From the NCBI GenBank assembly GCA_965215665.1, contig OZ244110.1, positions 1,627,062-1,691,061 on the forward strand: a stretch of 64,000 nucleotides of DNA, written 5' to 3'. Under the pieces are notes generated by a model. The model was not told the origin of the DNA, ran no database searches, and saw nothing but the letters and a program-made list of their open reading frames with translations. This DNA is from an uncultured Methylophaga sp. GTDB lineage: Bacteria; Pseudomonadota; Gammaproteobacteria; Nitrosococcales; Methylophagaceae. Position numbers and translations under genes: made by a program. This document shows, one piece after another, positions 209 to 10,350 of the stretch (position 1 is its first letter; every line of letters begins with the position of its first letter).

Positions 209-367
209 AGACTTCTAATGATAAAAAAGGCGAGCCAACATACTCCCACTGTTACGGGTGGGAATCAATGGAATAGTCGATGGCCGTTAAAATAGTGGCC
301 AGTTTTTTGTTACAGGAAAGCCAAGCCGGATTGATTCCGGCTCAGTTTGGTTTAAAAATGAAGCTGT

Positions 368-2161
368 TTATTGCTGCTGAACGTAAGCCTGCCAGCCTTT
401 AAGATGACTGATATCGCTAGCGTTGGTGATAGCATACGGCTCACAGATAAAGCCCGTGTACCATTGCTGATCGTCCAGTTGGACCTTACCAATACCTAAT
501 GGGGCAGGGATCCCAGCGACAAACGATCCAAAGCTGGCAGTAGATAATTCCCATAATTCAACTTCAATCGCTTCACCATGTTGTTCATCTCTGACCAGTC
601 CAGGCCGAGCTGGTGGACCGCCGGGAAGTGCATAAAGCCGGTAATCTGAACTGGTTTGTGTGGCGCGTATTAATTTGCCGCCGCGCTCCCGCAATTGCCA
701 GTTAAGCGGTTGTCCTTCTAGATGCGCTCCACAGACAACGACCTGTATCCGGTCCATCACCCCGGCGTTTAACGCATGAGACTCAGCAAGCGGCAACGAG
801 GTTGCTCCCAGCGGTAATTTCAATGTTTGTTGCAATCGATTAGCATAAGATAATAAGCGGGTATCACTGAAGGCTCTGGAAAACAGTGTCACACCAAAAG
901 GTAACCCGTTTGCGTTGAAACCTGCCGGAACGGCAACCGCGCTGCAATCGAGCAGGTTCATAAAGTTGGTGTAGTAACCCAGCTGGCTATTAAGTTTAAT
1001 TGGCTCTGCCTGCACCTCTTTGATTTTGTAAATCTTGCCGGCGGTAGGGGTCAGAATAAAATCAAAGTTTTCCAGTACCGGAGTGACCTGCTGTTTGCAG
1101 TGCTGTAGTTGGTATTCAGCACTAAACAGATCCTCGGCTGAAGCGGTATTATTACTATCGAGAATTTGTTGTAAAACCGGCAGCATATCCTCACGTTTCA
1201 CATTAGCAGTGGCAATTCGCCGTTCTGCCACCCACGGGCCTTCGTATAATAATCTGGCCGCCGTCAGAAACGGCTCAAAATCAATTTCATGACAGGTGCC
1301 GCCAAGTTTTTTCAGTGTTTCAACCGTGTTATAAAAGCCTTGTTCAGTTTCCTGATCGCCAAAAAATGCTAATTGTCCAGCCTGCGGAATGGCAAAGTTA
1401 AAGCTATCAGTTGCAAGTTGGCCATAATTTTTTCGGTTGGTATCTTTATTGTGTCGGGAGTAATCATCCTTGGAATCAAACGCAGCAGCCGCTTCAAATA
1501 CCCGATTTGCATCATCTGTAGTCAAACTGAAAATGGAAACACAATCCAGACTTTTACAGGCAGGCACCACACCGTGATTACTGAGCAAACCTCGCGACGG
1601 TTTCAAACCAATCAGGTTATTGAATGCAGCCGGTACCCGACCTGAACCAGCAGTGTCGGTGCCTAAAGAAAAACTCACCAGCCCCAGTGCGACCGCGACG
1701 GCAGAACCTGAACTGGAACCACCGGAAATATACTCTGGATCAAAACTGTTATGACAGGCTCCCCATTTATCCGGTGAACGCACACCAACGAGCCCGGTGG
1801 CAAATTGATCCATATTGGTTTTGCCAATCGGAATCGCCCCGGCATTAATCAGTAATTCCACCACATGAGCGGATTGCTCTGCTGTGTAGCGATAGGCTTC
1901 ACAACCAGCTGTGACATCCACACCAGCCAATTCAATATTGTCCTTTATCGCAAACGGAATTCCGTACAACGGCAATTTATCAGGTGATTGGCCGATTAAA
2001 TTATCCAGATAAGGCTGAATGGCTTCGCGAGATAACAGGGTTATCCAGATATTTCGATCAGCATAGGTGGTAGCGCGTTTCAGTACCTCATCAATCAGTT
2101 TATGTGGAGACAGCTTGCCATCACGATAAGCCTGATGGATGGCATCAATGGTCATATCCAT
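368..2161 (-). CDS. atzF: Allophanate hydrolase (amidase-signature domain plus C-terminal domain)
   Basis: KDNI, GGSSSGSA and GTDTAGSGRVPA amidase-signature motifs; C-terminal VVVCGAHL domain; start overlaps the carboxylase stop. Confidence 0.95.
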   Translation of the reverse strand: MDMTIDAIHQAYRDGKLSPHKLIDEVLKRATTYADRNIWITLLSREAIQPYLDNLIGQSPDKLPLYGIPFAIKDNIELAGVDVTAGCEAYRYTAEQSAHVVELLINAGAIPIGKTNMDQFATGLVGVRSPDKWGACHNSFDPEYISGGSSSGSAVAVALGLVSFSLGTDTAGSGRVPAAFNNLIGLKPSRGLLSNHGVVPACKSLDCVSIFSLTTDDANRVFEAAAAFDSKDDYSRHNKDTNRKNYGQLATDSFNFAIPQAGQLAFFGDQETEQGFYNTVETLKKLGGTCHEIDFEPFLTAARLLYEGPWVAERRIATANVKREDMLPVLQQILDSNNTASAEDLFSAEYQLQHCKQQVTPVLENFDFILTPTAGKIYKIKEVQAEPIKLNSQLGYYTNFMNLLDCSAVAVPAGFNANGLPFGVTLFSRAFSDTRLLSYANRLQQTLKLPLGATSLPLAESHALNAGVMDRIQVVVCGAHLEGQPLNWQLRERGGKLIRATQTSSDYRLYALPGGPPARPGLVRDEQHGEAIEVELWELSTASFGSFVAGIPAPLGIGKVQLDDQQWYTGFICEPYAITNASDISHLKGWQAYVQQQ

Positions 2162-5100
2162 TATTCTGCCTCCCCGGAAATAACGACCAGTCGATCACCC
2201 ATACCGACCTGCGCGCCGGCCTGTCGTTTAATTTCTGTGACGGTACCGGCTTGAGTCGCTGTTATCTGGATTTCCATTTTCATCGCTTCAAGGATCATCA
2301 ATACATCGCCTTCTTGTACAGACGAGCCGATTTCTACTTCCACTTTCCAGACGCTGCAATTGAGCGGGCTATCAACGGAAATCGCATTTTCTGGCAAAGG
2401 TGCACTTTCCTCATCGATGATCTGCGGTTCATTGCCACTATCAAAATGTAAAAGACCCTCGCGTTTCCAGTGTTCCAGCTCCTGTTCAAAGGCGAGTTCA
2501 CGCTGGCGGGTAAAGCTGTCAATCGACTCTTTATGTTGCTCAATAAACTGGTTATAGCGTTTGAGATTGAAGGTGGTTTCTTCAATCTTCAGCGGGTAAT
2601 TGCCCTGTGGAAAATCACGACGGATCTGTACCAGTTCATCATGAGTAACTTCATAAAACTTGATTTGATCGAAAAAACGTAACAACCAGGGTTTAGTGAA
2701 TTCAGTGGTTTGCAGATAACGATTCCACATCTGCAGGGTCCGGCCGATAAACTGATAGCCACCCGGTCCTTCCATGCCATAAACGCACAGATAGGAACCG
2801 CCGATACCTACAGAGTTTTCAGCCGTCCAGGTCCGGGCAGGGTTATATTTGGTGGTGACCAGACGGTGTCTGGGGTCCAGTGGCGTTGCGACTGGCGCGC
2901 CCAGATAGACATCGCCCAGGCCCATCACCAGATAACTGGCCTCAAACACAATACGCTTCACTTCATCGACCGAGCTAAGTCCGTTTATACGACGAATAAA
3001 CTCAATATTATCCGGACACCAGGGAGCGTTATGACGTACCCCTTGCATATACTTCTGAATAGCTTGCTGACAGGCTTCGTCATTCCAGGAAATGGGTAAA
3101 TGCACGATACGTGCAGGCACGTCCATTTCTTCGATATTGCTGATTTCCTGTTCAGCTTTTTTGAGAATACCAACCAGAGTTTCCAGGGAAATTTGCAGAC
3201 CATTGTAGTGGATCTGCAGCGAACGAATACCGGGTGTAAGCTCCCGTAATCCTTGGATATTTTGATCCTGTAACCACAACATCAACGCATGTACCTTAAA
3301 GCGCAGATTGATATCCAGTTTCAGTTCGCCATATTCGACCAGCAGATAATGATCGCCAGCCAACCGGTAGCAGACATCTATACCAGTCTCTGGCGAATTC
3401 AGCGTGTCATAGATGGGCGAGCCAATTTCTGTGGGGACGACCTCAACAGATTGTTGCGTCAAATTGCTCAGCGATTCCAGCTGAGCCCGTTCCATGGCTC
3501 TGGCGGTTTCTATCGACACTGGAATAAACCGCACGGTATCGCCGGCTTTTAATTGGCCTATTTTCCATAGTTCTGCGGTGATTACCGTGGCCGGACAGAC
3601 AAAGCCACCCAACGACGGACCATCGGGGCCGAGAATAATCGGCATATCACCAGTGAAATCAATGGTGCCCACCGCATAGGCATTATCATGAATATTGGAC
3701 GGGTGTAAGCCTGCTTCGCCGCCGGTATTTCGAGCCCATTCCGGACGTGGTCCAATCAGTCTGATACCGGTGCGGCTGGAGTTATAGTGAATTTTCCAGT
3801 CAGCGGCAAAAAACGTTTCGATATCCTTTTCGGTGAAGAAATCCGGCGCGCCATGCGGGCCGTAAATAACCTTAATCTCCCAGTGAGTGGTTATTTGCGG
3901 AATTAATTCGGCAGGCGTTGTTGTTAAATCAACTTGAGAGGTTTCATCTGATAAATGAAGAACATCACCAGTTTTTAACGTTCGACCGACATGGCCGCCA
4001 AATTGACCCAGGGTAAAGGTGGAGCGGGAGCCTAGATAATTCGGGCATTGAATGCCACCAGCCACCAGCAGATAAGACCGCGTACCGGCGGCTTTGATTT
4101 GACCCAGTGTAAGTTTGTCGCCGCTAGTGACAGAGTATATTTGCCAGCAATCAATCGGCTCGCCATTGAGTTTGGTCTCAATGGTGGCACCAGTAATGAT
4201 AATTTGGCTGCTGCAGTTAAATACCAGTTCCGGGCCGCTCAGCGTGATTTCCAATCCAGCACAGTCTTCCGTGTTACCAAGCAGACGATTACCCAACCGG
4301 AACGACCAGTTGTCATACGGGCCAGAAGGCGGAATGCCGATATCCCAATAGCCTTGCCGACCGGGATAATCCTGCACTGTGGTCATGGTGCCTGGCGATA
4401 TAACACTGAAGGTATTGGGCTGATAAACAAAACTGTCCAGATACCGAGTGGTGATGCTGGCGGATAAAAAGGCGGCATCATTCAAAATATGGCTGAGATA
4501 GTCGGTATTGGTTTCAATACCGTAGATGCTGATTTGTTTCAGTGCTGTGAGCAGTTTCTCATGCGCCGTTTCGCGTGTTTCTGCAAAGCTGATCACTTTA
4601 GCCAGCATCGGATCAAAAAAAGGCGAGATCTCGATACCGGGTTTAATCCAGTGATCGATACGTAAATCCGGCAGTTGAGGAAAAATAACCTCCGTTAACA
4701 AGCCAGCAGACGGCTGGAATTTTTTGAATGGATCTTCGGCATACAACCTTACTTGTATGGCATGACCATGAGGTTTGGGTGCTTTGAGAGGCAATGTGCT
4801 TTCCTGCGCTCCGACCTCAATCATCCAGCGAACCAGATCCACCTGATAAATAGCCTCGGTAACACCGTGCTCAACCTGCAGCCGGGTATTTACCTCCAGA
4901 AAATAAAAGTCATGTGTCTGGGCATCGTAGACAAATTCCACGGTACCGGCGCTGCGATAATTAACAGCTGCCATTAACCGGACGGCAACCTCGTGCATAG
5001 ACTGACGAACGTTGTCGGGAATATTCGGCGCTGGCGCTTCTTCAATCACTTTCTGATTACGCCGTTGACTGGAACAGTCCCGATCGCCCAGTGCCAGAAC

Positions 5101-5757
5101 ATGTCCCTGACCATCGCCGATAATCTGCACTTCGATATGTCGCGCCTGGGTGATAAATTTTTCGATAAACACGCCATCATTGGAAAAATTATTAGCGCCG
5201 AGTCGTTTAACCGAATTAAAGGCGTTTTTCAGCTCAGCTTCGTTATCACAACGGCTCATGCCGATACCGCCACCACCGGCGGTGGATTTAAGCATTACCG
5301 GATAACCTACGATCTGAGCAGTTGTGATCGCCTGTTCAATATCCGCGAGTAATTCTGAGCCGGGCAATAACGGAACATCGTTTTGCTGAGCCAGTGCTCT
5401 GGCACTGTGTTTCAGACCAAAGGCTTCCATCTGCTCCGGTGTGGGGCCCAGAAAAACCAGATTATTGGCTTCACAAAGCCGGGCAAAGTCGGGGTTTTCA
5501 CTTAAAAAACCATAACCGGGATGAATTGCTTCTGCGCCGATTTCTCTGGCAATTTCGAGAATGCGTTGCTGATTCAGATAAGTGTCTGCAGCGCGGCCTT
5601 CTCCAAGCGAAAAGGCTTCATCAGCAGTACTGACATGCAAAGAGTCACGGTCCGCTTCTGCATAGATGGCAACAGCCTGAATACCCATTTGCTGGAGGGT
5701 GCGAATGATTCTGGTGGCAATAGCCCCGCGGTTGGCAATTAAAATCTTCTTGAACAT
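2161..5757 (-). CDS. uca: Urea/guanidine carboxylase (biotin carboxylase, carboxyltransferase and biotin-carrier domains)
   Basis: ILIANRGAIA, HPGYGFLSEN, FLEVNTRLQVEH biotin carboxylase motifs; HPSNIHD and GMEGPGGYQ carboxyltransferase motifs; EAMKM biotinylation site; 1198 aa. Riboswitch context points to guanidine as substrate. Confidence 0.95.
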   Translation of the reverse strand: MFKKILIANRGAIATRIIRTLQQMGIQAVAIYAEADRDSLHVSTADEAFSLGEGRAADTYLNQQRILEIAREIGAEAIHPGYGFLSENPDFARLCEANNLVFLGPTPEQMEAFGLKHSARALAQQNDVPLLPGSELLADIEQAITTAQIVGYPVMLKSTAGGGGIGMSRCDNEAELKNAFNSVKRLGANNFSNDGVFIEKFITQARHIEVQIIGDGQGHVLALGDRDCSSQRRNQKVIEEAPAPNIPDNVRQSMHEVAVRLMAAVNYRSAGTVEFVYDAQTHDFYFLEVNTRLQVEHGVTEAIYQVDLVRWMIEVGAQESTLPLKAPKPHGHAIQVRLYAEDPFKKFQPSAGLLTEVIFPQLPDLRIDHWIKPGIEISPFFDPMLAKVISFAETRETAHEKLLTALKQISIYGIETNTDYLSHILNDAAFLSASITTRYLDSFVYQPNTFSVISPGTMTTVQDYPGRQGYWDIGIPPSGPYDNWSFRLGNRLLGNTEDCAGLEITLSGPELVFNCSSQIIITGATIETKLNGEPIDCWQIYSVTSGDKLTLGQIKAAGTRSYLLVAGGIQCPNYLGSRSTFTLGQFGGHVGRTLKTGDVLHLSDETSQVDLTTTPAELIPQITTHWEIKVIYGPHGAPDFFTEKDIETFFAADWKIHYNSSRTGIRLIGPRPEWARNTGGEAGLHPSNIHDNAYAVGTIDFTGDMPIILGPDGPSLGGFVCPATVITAELWKIGQLKAGDTVRFIPVSIETARAMERAQLESLSNLTQQSVEVVPTEIGSPIYDTLNSPETGIDVCYRLAGDHYLLVEYGELKLDINLRFKVHALMLWLQDQNIQGLRELTPGIRSLQIHYNGLQISLETLVGILKKAEQEISNIEEMDVPARIVHLPISWNDEACQQAIQKYMQGVRHNAPWCPDNIEFIRRINGLSSVDEVKRIVFEASYLVMGLGDVYLGAPVATPLDPRHRLVTTKYNPARTWTAENSVGIGGSYLCVYGMEGPGGYQFIGRTLQMWNRYLQTTEFTKPWLLRFFDQIKFYEVTHDELVQIRRDFPQGNYPLKIEETTFNLKRYNQFIEQHKESIDSFTRQRELAFEQELEHWKREGLLHFDSGNEPQIIDEESAPLPENAISVDSPLNCSVWKVEVEIGSSVQEGDVLMILEAMKMEIQITATQAGTVTEIKRQAGAQVGMGDRLVVISGEAE

Positions 5758-5776
5758 GGTTTCATCATCTCAAGGT

Positions 5777-5826
5777 GTGGGTCGTCCCACTGAAAAACCG
5801 GCGTGTTTCAAGTCGTCTCAAAACAC
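5777..5826 (-). ncRNA. Guanidine-II (mini-ykkC) riboswitch
   Basis: Minus strand GUGUUUUGAG-ACGA-CUUGAAACAC, linker GCCGGUUUUUCA, then GUGGG-ACGA-CCCAC: two hairpins with ACGR tetraloops, about 20 nt before the uca ATG. Confidence 0.9.
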
Positions 5827-5845
5827 GTTATTGCTGTTTGTATTA

Positions 5846-6484
5846 TCAATCCCAGATGTATAGGCCTATCGGTGTCGGGTTGTAGGCATTACAAGGGTTA
5901 TTAAGCTGAGGACAATTAGAAATCAACACAATGACATCCATTTGAGCCTGCATTTCAACGTATTTACCGGCTTCGGAAATACCGTCTGCAAAGGTCAATC
6001 CACCTTGTTCGGTGACCGGTACATTCATAAAAAAATTGATGTTGTGCGTGATATCGCGTTTGCTGATGCCGAACTGTTCGTTTTCCGCAACCGCCAACAT
6101 CCAGCTGTCACGGCAGGCATGCATGGTTTTCTTCTCCAGTGCGTAACGCACGGTGTTGGATTCCGTAGCACAGGCACCGCCTAACGTATCGTGACGACCG
6201 CAGGTGTCGGCGGTAATGGTTAACATGGGATTTCCCATATTGGTCAACAACGTGGTGCCGGCAGTCAGGTAAACGTTTTTCTGTTCACGAATGGTATCAA
6301 TCGCGCTGTAGCGTTCAGCAGGATCAGCAACACTGTAGAACAGCGTATCTGCTGCCTGATTGCCGTGTAAATCCACAATCCGTAAGGTCTGGTTTTTCAG
6401 CAGAGGTTGCATCCAGTAATCACCAGCCAGTACCTCTTCGTAACGGACTGCCTGATTAATATTCAAATGACTTTCTTTAATCAC
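5846..6484 (-). CDS. cgdB: Urea carboxylase-associated DUF1989 protein, carboxyguanidine deiminase subunit B
   Basis: [13 protein letters not shown]-like, INFFMNVP and [13 protein letters not shown] motifs; start re-placed at GTG 6484 after an AAAGGA Shine-Dalgarno (the longer ORF-track start overlaps the upstream gene). Confidence 0.85.
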
Positions 6485-6504
6485 GATCTGTTTGTCCTTT
6501 TTCG

Positions 6505-7245
6505 TTAATGATGTGCACACAGGTGATAGAGACGATTGTTTGCAAAACCACGTTGGTTTTCGGCACAGGCATTCAGGCACAGATCGTCTTCAGTGACGGC
6601 GGCAGCATTACGAATTTGATAGATAACGGGGTTTTTCGGATAGGTCGCTGCCGTGTTCATCGGGTGTGGGCAGGTGTGGAACAGCACCAGGGTATCCATT
6701 TCAAAGCGCAGATCTACATAATCACCGGCTTTACTGTGGTTTTCGACATAGGTCAGATTGCCAAGATCATCTGTTTTGATACTGCTAAACAAATTCAGAT
6801 TGGCTGCCATATCGCGTTTATTCAGACCATATTTGGCCAATTCGACTAAAAAGGCCTGTTCGCCACTGATGGTCCAATCATTACGAAACTGTTGGTAATT
6901 TTTGACGCCCCATTTAGCCTCCAACGTAGCATTGGTCAGATTGCCGCCAACGGTATCGTGCCAGCCCAGTGTATCTTCAGTGATTGAGCAAAAAATGCGG
7001 CCCATATCGGAATAGAGACAGTGGCCCTTGGTAAGTTTGAAGGTGTGCTGACATTTCAAGGTGTCGGGAGCGTTGTAGCGTTCCAGCATATTCTCCGGGT
7101 TGTAAAACAACATGCCGACATTGGCACCACCTTCCTGGTCAATCAGCCGCAGGGTGGTGCCTTTTCGCATCAGCATTGACCAATGAGCTCCACCTGGAAG
7201 TGTGTCTTGATATAAAACATCTTTGTCTTGGGTAATTTCAGTCAT
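6505..7245 (-). CDS. cgdA: Urea carboxylase-associated DUF1989 protein, carboxyguanidine deiminase subunit A
   Basis: [29 protein letters not shown] motifs; paired with a second DUF1989 gene upstream of uca. Confidence 0.85.
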
Positions 7246-8023
7246 TATTTATAGCCTGTTGTGTCATCAACGTCTCTTGAAAATCTTTGTTGATTTGTTT
7301 TTTGGAACGTCCTACCGGTATGTCATAGGTGATCGATGCTCCATAACGGTTTGGCTGATCAGGATCATGGCGCTGTTTATCAAAGACCAGCAGTTGGGTG
7401 CCTAGGGAGAAACCTTCGGAGAGATCATGGGTGATCATAAAAATCGTGATATTGGTCTCGCGCCAGATATCCAGAATCAACTCATGCATATCGGATCGAA
7501 TACCGGGATCCAGTGCACCGAAGGGTTCATCCAGTAACAGAATTTGTGGCTGTTTAATTAAGGCCTGAGCAATTGCCAGGCGTTGTTGCATACCCCCTGA
7601 TAATTCGCTGGGATATTTGGTTAAAGCGTGGTCTAGACCGACCTTTTCCAGCAAAGCAATCGCTCGTTCACGAATAGCCTGACGTTTTTTGCCAAAGCAG
7701 CGACCCAGTAGGGGAGATTCCTTCAGTTCCTCACCCAGCATCACGTTTTCGACGACGTTAAGGTGGGAAAATACCGAGTATTTCTGAAACACAATACCGC
7801 GATCAGCACCCGGTTCATTGGCTATTGGTTTACCGTTTAACAGCAATTCACCTCGAGTGGGTTGCTCAGTGCCCAGCAGCATTTTCAGGAAGGTGGTTTT
7901 GCCACAACCTGATGCACCAACCAGCGTGACAAATTCGCCGGCTTTGACATCAAGATTGATATTTTCCAGCACGATATTGTCGCCGTATTCCTTCCATAGA
8001 TTTTTGATCTTGATATCGTTCAT
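7238..8023 (-). CDS. ABC transporter ATP-binding protein (TauB/NrtD-like; probable guanidine uptake)
   Basis: Walker A GASGCGKT, signature LSGGMQQR, Walker B LLLDEPFGALD. Confidence 0.92.
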   Translation of the reverse strand: MNDIKIKNLWKEYGDNIVLENINLDVKAGEFVTLVGASGCGKTTFLKMLLGTEQPTRGELLLNGKPIANEPGADRGIVFQKYSVFSHLNVVENVMLGEELKESPLLGRCFGKKRQAIRERAIALLEKVGLDHALTKYPSELSGGMQQRLAIAQALIKQPQILLLDEPFGALDPGIRSDMHELILDIWRETNITIFMITHDLSEGFSLGTQLLVFDKQRHDPDQPNRYGASITYDIPVGRSKKQINKDFQETLMTQQAINND

Positions 8024-8847
8024 TTGCTTTCTCCCTGCTCATTCGCATGCCAGGGAAAAACGCCTTTTGACAGGCGTCTCAGCAGGTAATCCATCAAAAA
8101 GGCCAACAAGGTGATCCACACCACATAAGGCAAAATGATGTCCATCGACATATAACGTCGAACCAGAAAAATCCGGTATCCCAGCCCTTCGGTGGCTGAA
8201 ATGGCTTCTGCTGCAATGAGAAATAACCAGGCTGAGCCCAGACTCAAACGAACCGCATCAATCAACTTGGGTAACACCTGAGGTAACACTACCCGCAGAA
8301 TCAATTGCCAGCTGTTGGCGCCCAATGTCTGAGCTTTAATGATGATTTCATGCGGTAATGCCATCACCCTGAGCTGTACATCCCGAATCAGAAAGGGCGT
8401 GATGCCGAGCACAATCAGCATCACTTTGGAGAGTTCACCCAGACCGAAGATAATGAACAATATCGGCAAAATCGCTAAAGGTGGCACCAGTGAAATGATG
8501 GTTATCACCGGTGCTATTCCAGCTCTGATCAATGGAATAATGCCGACCAGAATGCCAATAATCAGACCGGTCAAAGCACTGATGCCGACGCCGAGTGCCA
8601 GCCTTTGCAGACTGGCAGCCGTATCCGCCCACAATACATAATCACCGGTACGCTTGTTGGGCTCGAATGCCAGATAAGACACCGCATCGATAAAAGACTG
8701 CATTGACGGCATCAATTTATCATTCGGGTTAATCGCCAGACGTTCACTGGAAAAGTAAAAATAAACAATCCCAATAACAACGAATGGCAATAGACCCAGC
8801 AGGCATTTTCCTAGAGTACCTGGACGTTGATTGATCAGTCTCTTCAC
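8020..8847 (-). CDS. ABC transporter permease (urea carboxylase system)
   Basis: Several hydrophobic helices, AQTLGAN EAA-like loop, WLFLIAAEAI motif; between binding-protein and ATPase genes. Confidence 0.92.
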   Translation of the reverse strand: MKRLINQRPGTLGKCLLGLLPFVVIGIVYFYFSSERLAINPNDKLMPSMQSFIDAVSYLAFEPNKRTGDYVLWADTAASLQRLALGVGISALTGLIIGILVGIIPLIRAGIAPVITIISLVPPLAILPILFIIFGLGELSKVMLIVLGITPFLIRDVQLRVMALPHEIIIKAQTLGANSWQLILRVVLPQVLPKLIDAVRLSLGSAWLFLIAAEAISATEGLGYRIFLVRRYMSMDIILPYVVWITLLAFLMDYLLRRLSKGVFPWHANEQGESK

Positions 8848-8871
8848 GAGAAACTCCCTGTGTTACTTAAC

Positions 8872-9939
8872 TTAAAGGGCGTTATCCGCGGCCATTTTCA
8901 TGAAGCTGGAATCAAATCTGAGTTTGACATTATTTTTATCGCCTGCCACGTCACCGTTAGGGTAGGCAATTCCAATAAAATCAGCATCCATCGCACCATC
9001 GCCTAACAAACCATGGTCAAATGAGAAGTCAGTAATGTGTTTCATCGTAGCTTGCAGCTGAGCGCTGTTGGCAAAACTGACTGCTTCGGCGGCTGTGTAG
9101 AACATGTTGGTTGCATCCAGCTGTGCTTGATAGCCTGCGAGATCGGTTCCTGATGCTTCAGCCATCATGGTCAAGGCTTCTTCATCACCTGCTTGCATTT
9201 TGGCCATGATTTCATACCAGGCGCCGGTTAACGCTTTACCAAAAGCCGGATTAGCTTCTAGCGTTTCAGTGTTAACTACTAACAGGTCGATGATTTCGCC
9301 CGGGATGTCGGAGGAATCAAATACCTTGGTGGTATCAGGAATAGCGGTGATTTCTGACAGTAATGGATTCCAGGTGACTGTGGAGGTGACATCCGATGCA
9401 TTAAATACTCCTACCAGATCGGCATCAGAAGTGTTGACCACGGTTACATCGCGTTCACTCATCTCTACGCTATCCAAAGCACGCGCTAACAAGTAATGCG
9501 AAACGGATAATTCGACCAGATTGACCCGTTGACCTTTAATATCGGCAAGCTTTTTATCTGCGCCTTTCAGCACGATGCCATCATTGCCGTTGGAAAAGTC
9601 ACCGATGATTAAAGCTGTACTATCCACACCACCCGCAGCAGGAATGGTCAGGGCATCCATATTGGTCATGGTGCACCCATCAAACTGGCCAGCGGTATAT
9701 TGATTAATAGATTCGATGTAATCGTTGATCTGCACGACATCTATTTCGATATCGTATTTATCAGCCCACTTTTTAACGATGCCTGCATTATCAGCGTAAT
9801 CCCATGGCATCCAGCCGGCATAAATTGTCCAGGCAATACTAAATTTATCTTTGGTTTCAGCGTGTGCTGCTAATGGGGAAATAATAAAAGAGAGTGAAAG
9901 CAGCAAAACGCTGCCGATGCGGTAAAAAGTGCGCTTCAT
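8872..9939 (-). CDS. ABC periplasmic substrate-binding protein of the urea carboxylase system (probable guanidine binding)
   Basis: Signal peptide; WTIYAGWMPW, NDYIESINQY, MTNMDAL, GDFSNGND motifs; first gene after the guanidine-I riboswitch. Confidence 0.9.
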   Translation of the reverse strand: MKRTFYRIGSVLLLSLSFIISPLAAHAETKDKFSIAWTIYAGWMPWDYADNAGIVKKWADKYDIEIDVVQINDYIESINQYTAGQFDGCTMTNMDALTIPAAGGVDSTALIIGDFSNGNDGIVLKGADKKLADIKGQRVNLVELSVSHYLLARALDSVEMSERDVTVVNTSDADLVGVFNASDVTSTVTWNPLLSEITAIPDTTKVFDSSDIPGEIIDLLVVNTETLEANPAFGKALTGAWYEIMAKMQAGDEEALTMMAEASGTDLAGYQAQLDATNMFYTAAEAVSFANSAQLQATMKHITDFSFDHGLLGDGAMDADFIGIAYPNGDVAGDKNNVKLRFDSSFMKMAADNAL

Positions 9940-9976
9940 TTTGGTAGTACCTCACAGCTTAGGTTAAGAACACGGT

Positions 9977-10004
9977 GAAAGAGATGTTTTATTCAAACAA
10001 TCTC
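9977..10004 (-). terminator. Putative riboswitch expression-platform hairpin
   Basis: Minus strand GAGAUUGUUU-GAAU-AAAACAUCUC followed by UUUC; the 5' arm overlaps the aptamer's conserved 3' GGGAG. Short U tract lowers confidence. Confidence 0.55.
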
Positions 10005-10095
10005 CCGGGCTTTTATCCCTCCGTGTAACCTTCGCTGTGAAGGTCGGTCACTCTCGGTCCAGACGTTATTTACATAACCGGAACCCTAGAGACCC
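10001..10095 (-). ncRNA. Guanidine-I (ykkC-yxkD) riboswitch
   Basis: Minus strand contains the diagnostic blocks CUAGGGUUCCG, GUCUGGACCGAGAG, a P2 hairpin ACCUUC/GAAGGU and ACACGGAGGGAUAAAAGCCCGGGAG. Confidence 0.97.
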
Positions 10096-10149
10096 TATTG
10101 CTGTTCTTTTGGTGTGATAAAAACACCTCTAACACGCTATCCCTATCAA

Positions 10150-10166
10150 AGCATCATTCAGGCCAG
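10150..10166 (-). promoter_or_regulatory. Sigma54 (-24/-12) promoter of the guanidine operon
   Basis: Minus strand CTGGCCTGAATGATGCT has exact GG-N10-GC spacing, about 55 nt upstream of the aptamer. Confidence 0.7.
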
Positions 10167-10240: not shown

Positions 10241-10287
10241 CGCACCGAATTTGTGCATTTAAAATGTAATTGCCCGATCATGGCGCA
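10241..10287. promoter_or_regulatory. Tandem NtrC-type enhancer sites
   Basis: CGCACCG-AAT-TTGTGCA (10241-10257) and TGCCCGA-TCA-TGGCGCA (10271-10287) match TGCACCA-N3-TGGTGCA; 30 bp apart, about 75-120 bp upstream of the sigma54 motif. Confidence 0.7.
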
Positions 10288-10316: not shown

Positions 10317-10350
10317 AAAAAAAAGCCCCTGATAACAGGGGCTCATTTTC
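10317..10350. terminator. Intrinsic terminator downstream of ssb
   Basis: AAAAAAAGCCCCTG-ATAA-CAGGGGCT hairpin with a U tract on the minus strand. Confidence 0.8.

Follow-up and report, generated by a model that had tools for sequence, protein, structure and literature searches.

Why should one ligand be sensed twice within a single operon? For guanidine operons, the literature flags the logic of such a layout as open. In this work, we address this remaining question at a locus of an uncultured Methylophaga sp., where we analyzed a window of 64,000 nucleotides (nt; the whole stretch of contig DNA under study) in which the operon and both of its RNA elements lie on the minus strand. A guanidine-I riboswitch heads this operon, and a guanidine-II riboswitch is located internally, shortly before the gene for guanidine carboxylase. 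Overall, we consider it probable that the locus is a guanidine operon of known layout with an NtrC/sigma-54 promoter, in which each switch gates one tightly packed block of genes. The two riboswitches are as follows:

10000..10100, minus strand: guanidine-I riboswitch aptamer (RF00442; 91 bits against a gathering score of 63)
5777..5827, minus strand: guanidine-II riboswitch (mini-ykkC, RF01068), consisting of P1, a linker, and P2, with two ACGA loops

A previous sequence-only reading had placed guanidine-I at the head of the operon and guanidine-II, with its two ACGA hairpins, just upstream of the carboxylase start codon. Both placements were confirmed with accurate coordinates, and the Infernal check with Rfam models proposed in that reading succeeded fully for the first element and narrowly missed its threshold for the second. 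The guanidine-I match covers model positions 1-107 of 107 (E 4.5e-15), is the sole above-gathering Rfam match in the window, and is present as a single copy in the 2.97-Mb genome. The guanidine-II match (5777-5824) scores 31.9 bits against a gathering score of 32, with an E value of 9.4e-5 in a 400-nt scan (5600-6000), and it is the only match in the whole genome (E 1.7e-4).

The internal element has the expected parts of its class. P1 is GUUUUGAG-ACGA-CUUGAAAC, which can be extended to 11 base pairs (bp; 5802-5827), and P2 is the 5-bp hairpin GUGGG-ACGA-CCCAC (5777-5790). The two are connected by an 11-nt linker, CCGGUUUUUCA; both loops are ACGA and both closing pairs are G-C. P1 also contains two G-U pairs and has an A-U in place of a G-C as its second pair, and the latter is the reason for the sub-threshold score. 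The distance from the end of P2 to the carboxylase ATG (5757) is 19 nt, compared with a spacing of mostly 11-27 nt in 58 loci of relatives. Orthologous elements at the same junction in congeners score 34-45 bits. Among 52 distinct orthologous elements aligned by their loops, 86.5% of the stem cells are paired (64% in shuffles), double changes occur in 12 of the 14 stem pairs, and none of 500 shuffles reaches the observed covariation; slid registers likewise remain far below it. Judging from these patterns, the internal element is a genuine guanidine-II riboswitch. A chance motif was considered and was ruled out by the sole genome match, the conserved site, and the stem covariation.

The genes between and around the two switches, in the order of transcription, are as follows:

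8872..9939, minus strand: ATP-binding cassette (ABC) substrate-binding protein (TIGR03427 ABC_peri_uca; 557.9 bits against a cut-off of 333.9)
8020..8847, minus strand: ABC permease (24-nt gap after the binding-protein gene)
7238..8023, minus strand: ABC ATPase (4-nt overlap with the permease gene)
6505..7245, minus strand: carboxyguanidine deiminase subunit (TIGR03425, UAAP1; 325.8 bits against 205.95; 8-nt overlap with the ATPase gene)
5846..6580, minus strand: carboxyguanidine deiminase subunit, the product of cgdB (TIGR03424, UAAP2; 321.5 bits against 284.7)
2161..5757, minus strand: guanidine carboxylase, annotated as urea carboxylase (TIGR02712; 1845.9 bits; 1198 amino acids)
368..2161, minus strand: allophanate hydrolase (atzF; 816 bits; its start overlaps the carboxylase stop by 1 nt)
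321..345, minus strand: terminator-like hairpin at the operon end (terminator scan)

The pathway genes are adjacent on one strand, and the matches to TIGR03427, TIGR03425, TIGR03424, TIGR02712, and TIGR02713 all exceed the curated cut-offs, in agreement with the gene content (transport, CgdAB, carboxylase, and atzF) claimed by the sequence-only reading. Guanidine carboxylase is distinguished by an Asp at Kluyveromyces lactis position 1330, where urea carboxylase has Asn, together with an Asp at position 1584 (PMC11410670). When aligned to the K. lactis urea amidolyase (5i8i_A), the Methylophaga carboxylase has GTIDFTGD where the reference has GAINFTGD (Asp for Asn1330), and GLGDV is found in both at Asp1584, such that the second Asp is kept. 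The operon is assigned to the assimilation of guanidine as a nitrogen source, with an ABC importer, CgdAB, guanidine carboxylase, and allophanate hydrolase.

The gene spacing divides this unit into two blocks. Among the five proximal genes, the first junction has a 24-nt gap and the next two have overlaps of 4 nt and 8 nt; the overlap is larger at the last one if the longest open reading frame of cgdB is used, which extends into the preceding gene and leaves the start codon of cgdB uncertain. The sole real intergenic gap is the 88 nt between cgdB and the carboxylase gene, and this gap houses guanidine-II. Where the same junction has no guanidine-II (Halioglobus and others), it is only about 30 nt long. 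The 1-nt overlap then joins atzF to the carboxylase gene; the sequence-only reading had called atzF coupled. A terminator downstream of ssb (about 10323-10344) and the hairpin at 321-345 bound the unit.

To place this arrangement among relatives, we compared the 80 best cgdB-encoding loci from one-genome-per-species contigs of diverse Pseudomonadota. Genes were labeled by tblastn and both switch classes were located by pattern; an Rfam spot-check of seven loci agreed, and the two-hairpin pattern produced about 4 off-target matches in about 2.8 Mb (both strands, 80 loci). The sequence-only reading had called for a survey of how often both classes share an operon. Of the 80 loci, 38 combine a guanidine-I at the operon head with a guanidine-II that immediately precedes the carboxylase gene. 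Guanidine-II also precedes the carboxylase gene in 11 loci in which the head lies outside the locus (six) or has no guanidine-I pattern match (five), which brings this position to at least 49 of the 80. Guanidine-II is located before cgdA in nine loci with guanidine-I upstream and in two with the head outside the locus. By pattern, a further 11 loci have guanidine-I only, but in four of them the carboxylase gene is in fact preceded by a guanidine-II that was missed by the pattern (L033:10690-10750, L076:10790-10890, L081:6800-6850, and L031:10745-10800). These four elements have a P2 of 3 bp or a linker of about 66 nt and escape the Rfam gathering score or simple patterns; the layout is therefore under-counted.

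Among 41 related genomes, guanidine-II was found in two contexts: some matches precede a small gene of the SMR/Gdx type, and others fall at the cgdB-carboxylase junction. The latter context is present in eight Methylophaga genomes (including the one studied here) and in one gammaproteobacterium of another family. All eight Methylophaga genomes have a guanidine-I, and wherever one contig holds both switches, it is located about 4.25 kb upstream on the same strand. Several congeners (L003-L006, L008, L013, L016, and L019) also have a guanidine-II before a small SMR/Gdx-type exporter gene. The present genome has no second guanidine-II match and so may lack a riboswitch-controlled exporter.

Other combinations of the two classes were observed in the sample. 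Three Azospirillum species (L024:9049-9330, L025:2368-2655, and L032:9040-9330) have a guanidine-I (88 bits) and a guanidine-II about 75-90 nt apart in one 5′ untranslated region (UTR) before cgdA. The guanidine-II of these species consists of P1 GGCCGGG-ACGA-CCCGGCC, a 32-nt linker, and P2 CCGGG-ACGG-CCCGG, followed by GGAAGGAG and GTG, and it scores only 25 bits in Rfam because of the long linker. This arrangement would be a true mixed tandem of guanidine classes; a review of tandem riboswitches states that none had been seen for the guanidine classes (Sherlock et al., RNA Biol 2022; PMC9481103). Two further loci have two guanidine-I elements in place of one of each class, the first at the operon head and the second before cgdA (L095:3787-3888 and 9032-9127, with Rfam scores of 92.7 and 87.1 bits; L077:4638 and 7746).

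The manner in which each switch may act was examined in the regions that surround the aptamers:

9949..10044, minus strand: guanidine-I expression platform (minimum-free-energy fold)
5735..5834, minus strand: predicted OFF-state context of guanidine-II (fold -28.7 kcal/mol, z -3.3)

The ATG of the ABC binding-protein gene is 60 nt downstream of guanidine-I. The intervening platform can form a hairpin, GGGAGAU(U)GUUU/AAACAUCUC (10004-9981), that reuses the GGGAGA 3′ end of the aptamer and is followed by only UUU. In the ligand-free fold, the 5′ strand of aptamer P2 and its loop, ACCU(U)CACAGC (10044-10034), form an alternative helix with GCUGUGAGGU (9958-9949), which includes the Shine-Dalgarno (SD) sequence of the first gene. 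This complementarity between SD and aptamer extends genus-wide, where 96% of the cells pair and one compensatory change (C-G to U-A) is seen. Among 66 related leaders, the SD region pairs with the aptamer body in 36, and a run of four or more T is found in only 14. The sequence-only reading had relied on the usual action of guanidine-I on transcription and of guanidine-II on translation. Given the short UUU and the SD complementary to aptamer P2, this split is doubtful here, and the folds suggest that guanidine-I controls translation at least in part, with a possible contribution from Rho or a weak terminator.

Public RNA data also cover this leader. In contigs assembled from RNA runs, the leader has a depth 12-60 times that of the operon body, which fits premature 3′ ends or a stable leader. 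In one RNA run, the depth drops in steps on the way from the leader to the first gene (8200, 4345, 1650, 519, and 138). Contigs of one run also have RNA 3′ ends at 9855 and 9952 on the minus strand with poly(A)-like tails, which suggests that these ends are polyadenylated decay or termination products of the leader. The use of contig depth for comparing the two halves of the operon was rejected, as each depth is averaged over a contig, and the highly abundant leader is part of one of these contigs.

For guanidine-II, a hairpin formed by CUUGAGAUG and CAU-UUCAAG (5774-5749; arms CUUGAGAUG/CAUGUUCAAG) is predicted to bury the SD-like GAGA and the AUG (5757-5755). In addition, a predicted tail helix, GCAAU (5834-5830)/AUUGC (5739-5735), would enclose P1, P2, and this start-codon hairpin. 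The start-codon hairpin is also found in the nearest relatives (L015 and L020). No conserved OFF-state partner of the carboxylase ribosome-binding site was found across the 58 loci, in which the partners are the 5′ tail, the linker, the spacer, or the coding region. The lack of a conserved sequestering partner is as expected for the guanidine-II class.

Upstream of the leader, we found candidate elements for transcriptional control:

10150..10165, minus strand: sigma-54-type promoter TGGCCTGAATGATGCT (GG-N10-GC), a motif between the ssb terminator and the aptamer
10241..10287, minus strand: two NtrC-like enhancer 17-mers, TGCGCCATGATCGGGCA (10287-10271) and TGCACAAATTCGGTGCG (10257-10241)

The motif TGGCAY-N5-TTGCW is present in 48 of the 66 related leaders, in most cases 75-107 nt upstream of the guanidine-I core, compared with an expectation of about 0.02 per site, and it is found in every Methylophaga leader. 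The two NtrC-like sites are 30 bp apart from centre to centre and about 85-115 nt upstream of the sigma-54 promoter; 26 of 44 related loci have similar sites upstream of their promoter (2% of shuffled controls). The genome encodes rpoN. In contigs from four public runs of RNA type, the transcript has its 5′ boundary at 10125-10144, which fits a start near 10139. These motifs point to a promoter of the NtrC/sigma-54 class, and nitrogen-limitation control stacked on the riboswitch seems to be the rule in this clade. Nothing specific was found when the literature was searched for regulation of guanidine carboxylase operons by NtrC or sigma-54.

Direct observation covers the presence, conservation, and covariation of both aptamers, the identities of the genes, how widespread the layout is, and the leader RNA excess. 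The following mechanism may be built on these observations. Transcription would most likely start from the NtrC/sigma-54 promoter in response to nitrogen limitation. Guanidine-I, when bound to guanidine, would admit expression of the first five tightly packed genes, most likely by freeing the SD sequence from the aptamer P2 strand, with assistance from the weak terminator-like hairpin and possibly Rho. The 88-nt gap would break translational coupling between the proximal and distal blocks. Because control at the first cistron does not extend to a distal block that is uncoupled from it, the distal block would carry its own switch. There, guanidine-II would control whether ribosomes reach the carboxylase gene. 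With two guanidinium ions linking the ACGA loops of P1 and P2, the start-codon hairpin and the tail helix would be opened. The allophanate hydrolase gene follows with its 1-nt overlap and is probably translationally coupled to the carboxylase gene. We infer from this organization that there is one switch per coupled block, and two checkpoints in series would also be expected to lower the leak and steepen the response.

Several points weigh against this explanation of one switch per coupled block. The rationale itself is our own. Guanidine-II falls 0.1 bit below the Rfam gathering score, just a single compensatory pair supports the anti-SD helix of guanidine-I, and the OFF-state structures are single-sequence predictions with a ribosome-binding-site partner that varies across the 58 loci. 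The RNA evidence consists of assembled contigs for which the library type is partly guessed and the strand is unknown; contig mean depth is a poor measure of expression, and the poly(A)-like tails suggest a biased library.

The principal alternative is staged induction, as proposed by the sequence-only reading, in which the importer and CgdAB would be expressed at low guanidine through guanidine-I, and the carboxylase and hydrolase at higher guanidine through guanidine-II. We regard it as unlikely, although it has some attractive features. Guanidine-II binding is cooperative (Hill about 1.4), the Pseudomonas aeruginosa switch has a K1/2 of about 2 mM in a translation-initiation assay, far above the typical dissociation constant (KD; PMC10351892), and an early importer could raise internal guanidine in a feed-forward manner. 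The closest measurements come from the homologous operon of Vreelandella boliviensis, in which guanidine-I is located in the 5′-UTR and guanidine-II between cgdB and the carboxylase gene gca (Sinn et al., Nat Commun 2025; PMC12508155). By in-line probing, the apparent KD of its guanidine-I is 44 μM, with no binding of methylguanidine, and that of its guanidine-II is 93 μM for guanidine and 83 μM for methylguanidine (PMC12508155). The presumed order of affinities, higher for guanidine-I and lower for guanidine-II, is thus only a two-fold difference in the homologous operon. Moreover, the carboxylase and hydrolase are among the few operon proteins detectable when V. boliviensis grows on ammonium, such that the distal half is not the more tightly shut one; its proteome shows induction of the whole operon on guanidine, and the dual control was left for further study (PMC12508155).

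Other considerations also argue against staging. CgdAB has no substrate without the carboxylase, and the guanidine-I examined here is unlike a plain terminator switch. The proposed tie of guanidine-II to the costly carboxylase is weakened by the 11 related operons in which this class precedes cgdA, nine of them with guanidine-I upstream. Thresholds of guanidine-II are not readable from sequence, because single stem mutations shift the functional thresholds about 50-fold (PMC10351892). Staged induction by a hierarchy of affinities is unsupported by existing data, and two of its premises are weak for this locus. A three-input gate was also considered, in which NtrC/sigma-54, then guanidine-I, and then guanidine-II would act in turn, both switches mainly in translation, each on one translationally coupled block, and with in-vivo thresholds more than 5-fold apart; the importer would come first and fill the cell with guanidine, and this positive feedback would trip the cooperative guanidine-II, resulting in a staged, switch-like commitment to the ATP-costly carboxylase. 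We hold this scenario to be doubtful.

A difference in ligand range may also be imagined, in which guanidine-I responds to guanidine only and guanidine-II also to methylguanidine, such that the distal genes would be translated on substituted guanidines. The binding data for V. boliviensis given above, with methylguanidine bound by guanidine-II (83 μM) and rejected by guanidine-I, are in favor of this idea. However, the distal block of that organism holds the methylguanidine demethylase genes mgdH and mgdL, the Methylophaga operon has neither, and the transcript would be scarce anyway without activation through guanidine-I. We consequently find this explanation improbable.

Separate transcription of the carboxylase and hydrolase genes from a promoter of their own within cgdB, with guanidine-II as the 5′-UTR switch of that unit, is very improbable. 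The gap is just those 88 nt, no sigma-70-like promoter was predicted on the minus strand at 5760-6600, in or near the gap, and a sigma-54 motif was likewise not seen there. Furthermore, cgdB, guanidine-II, and the carboxylase gene are covered by single contigs that cross the junction in three RNA runs. The least credible idea, that the 11-bp P1 hairpin and CCGGUUUUUC (5791-5827, minus strand), flagged by the terminator scan, are a partial intrinsic terminator that lowers the distal mRNA level, was rejected as a regulated terminator and the match is probably incidental, for the T run begins 4 nt past the stem, the closest other species has lost it (L020: CCGGUUAUA), other congeners lack it, and P1 must form when ligand is bound, so that termination would oppose an ON switch.

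We thus return to the explanation of two translationally uncoupled blocks with one switch each. As the dual-riboswitch layout is already published and is the commonest one in the 80-locus sample, this locus is an ordinary new example of it, with little discovery value. Its practical value is in annotation: an element that misses the Rfam cut-off by such a small amount illustrates that standard pipelines under-report the arrangement. For the question of why one ligand is sensed twice per operon, the survey suggests the hypothesis that one switch serves each coupled gene block, downstream of a nitrogen-limitation promoter.

Comparisons with known systems help to place the Methylophaga operon. 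In V. boliviensis, the importer genes and cgdAB likewise come first, guanidine-II is located at the cgdB-gca junction, and the carboxylase and allophanate hydrolase genes are distal. The operons differ in that mgdH and mgdL are inserted between gca and atzF in V. boliviensis, whereas the corresponding two genes overlap by 1 nt in Methylophaga. The layout of guanidine-I and guanidine-II is also described for Raoultella, Erwinia, and Klebsiella (PMC12186494), with guanidine-I at the importer and deiminase genes and with the carboxylase and allophanate hydrolase genes immediately downstream under guanidine-II. Those genera belong to Enterobacterales, and in our sample the Klebsiella-labeled locus L054 differs in having its guanidine-II further upstream and not directly before the carboxylase gene.

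For the guanidine-II of P. aeruginosa, the proposed OFF state contains a helix of the 5′ and 3′ tails together with a sequestered ribosome-binding site (P0), which would be separated by loop dimerization (Focht et al., RNA 2023; PMC10351892). Both elements have two ACGR hairpins, and the predicted Methylophaga fold has an analogous tail helix and ribosome-binding-site hairpin. The downstream gene and the sequences are different, and the Methylophaga prediction puts the AUG in a stem with its partner in the coding region. The operon also resembles tandem or pseudo-cooperative arrangements, in which two sensors of the same ligand are in series on one transcript and can sharpen the response (PMC9481103). 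However, that review covers adjacent aptamers, whereas the two Methylophaga switches are 4.2 kb apart and act on different cistrons.

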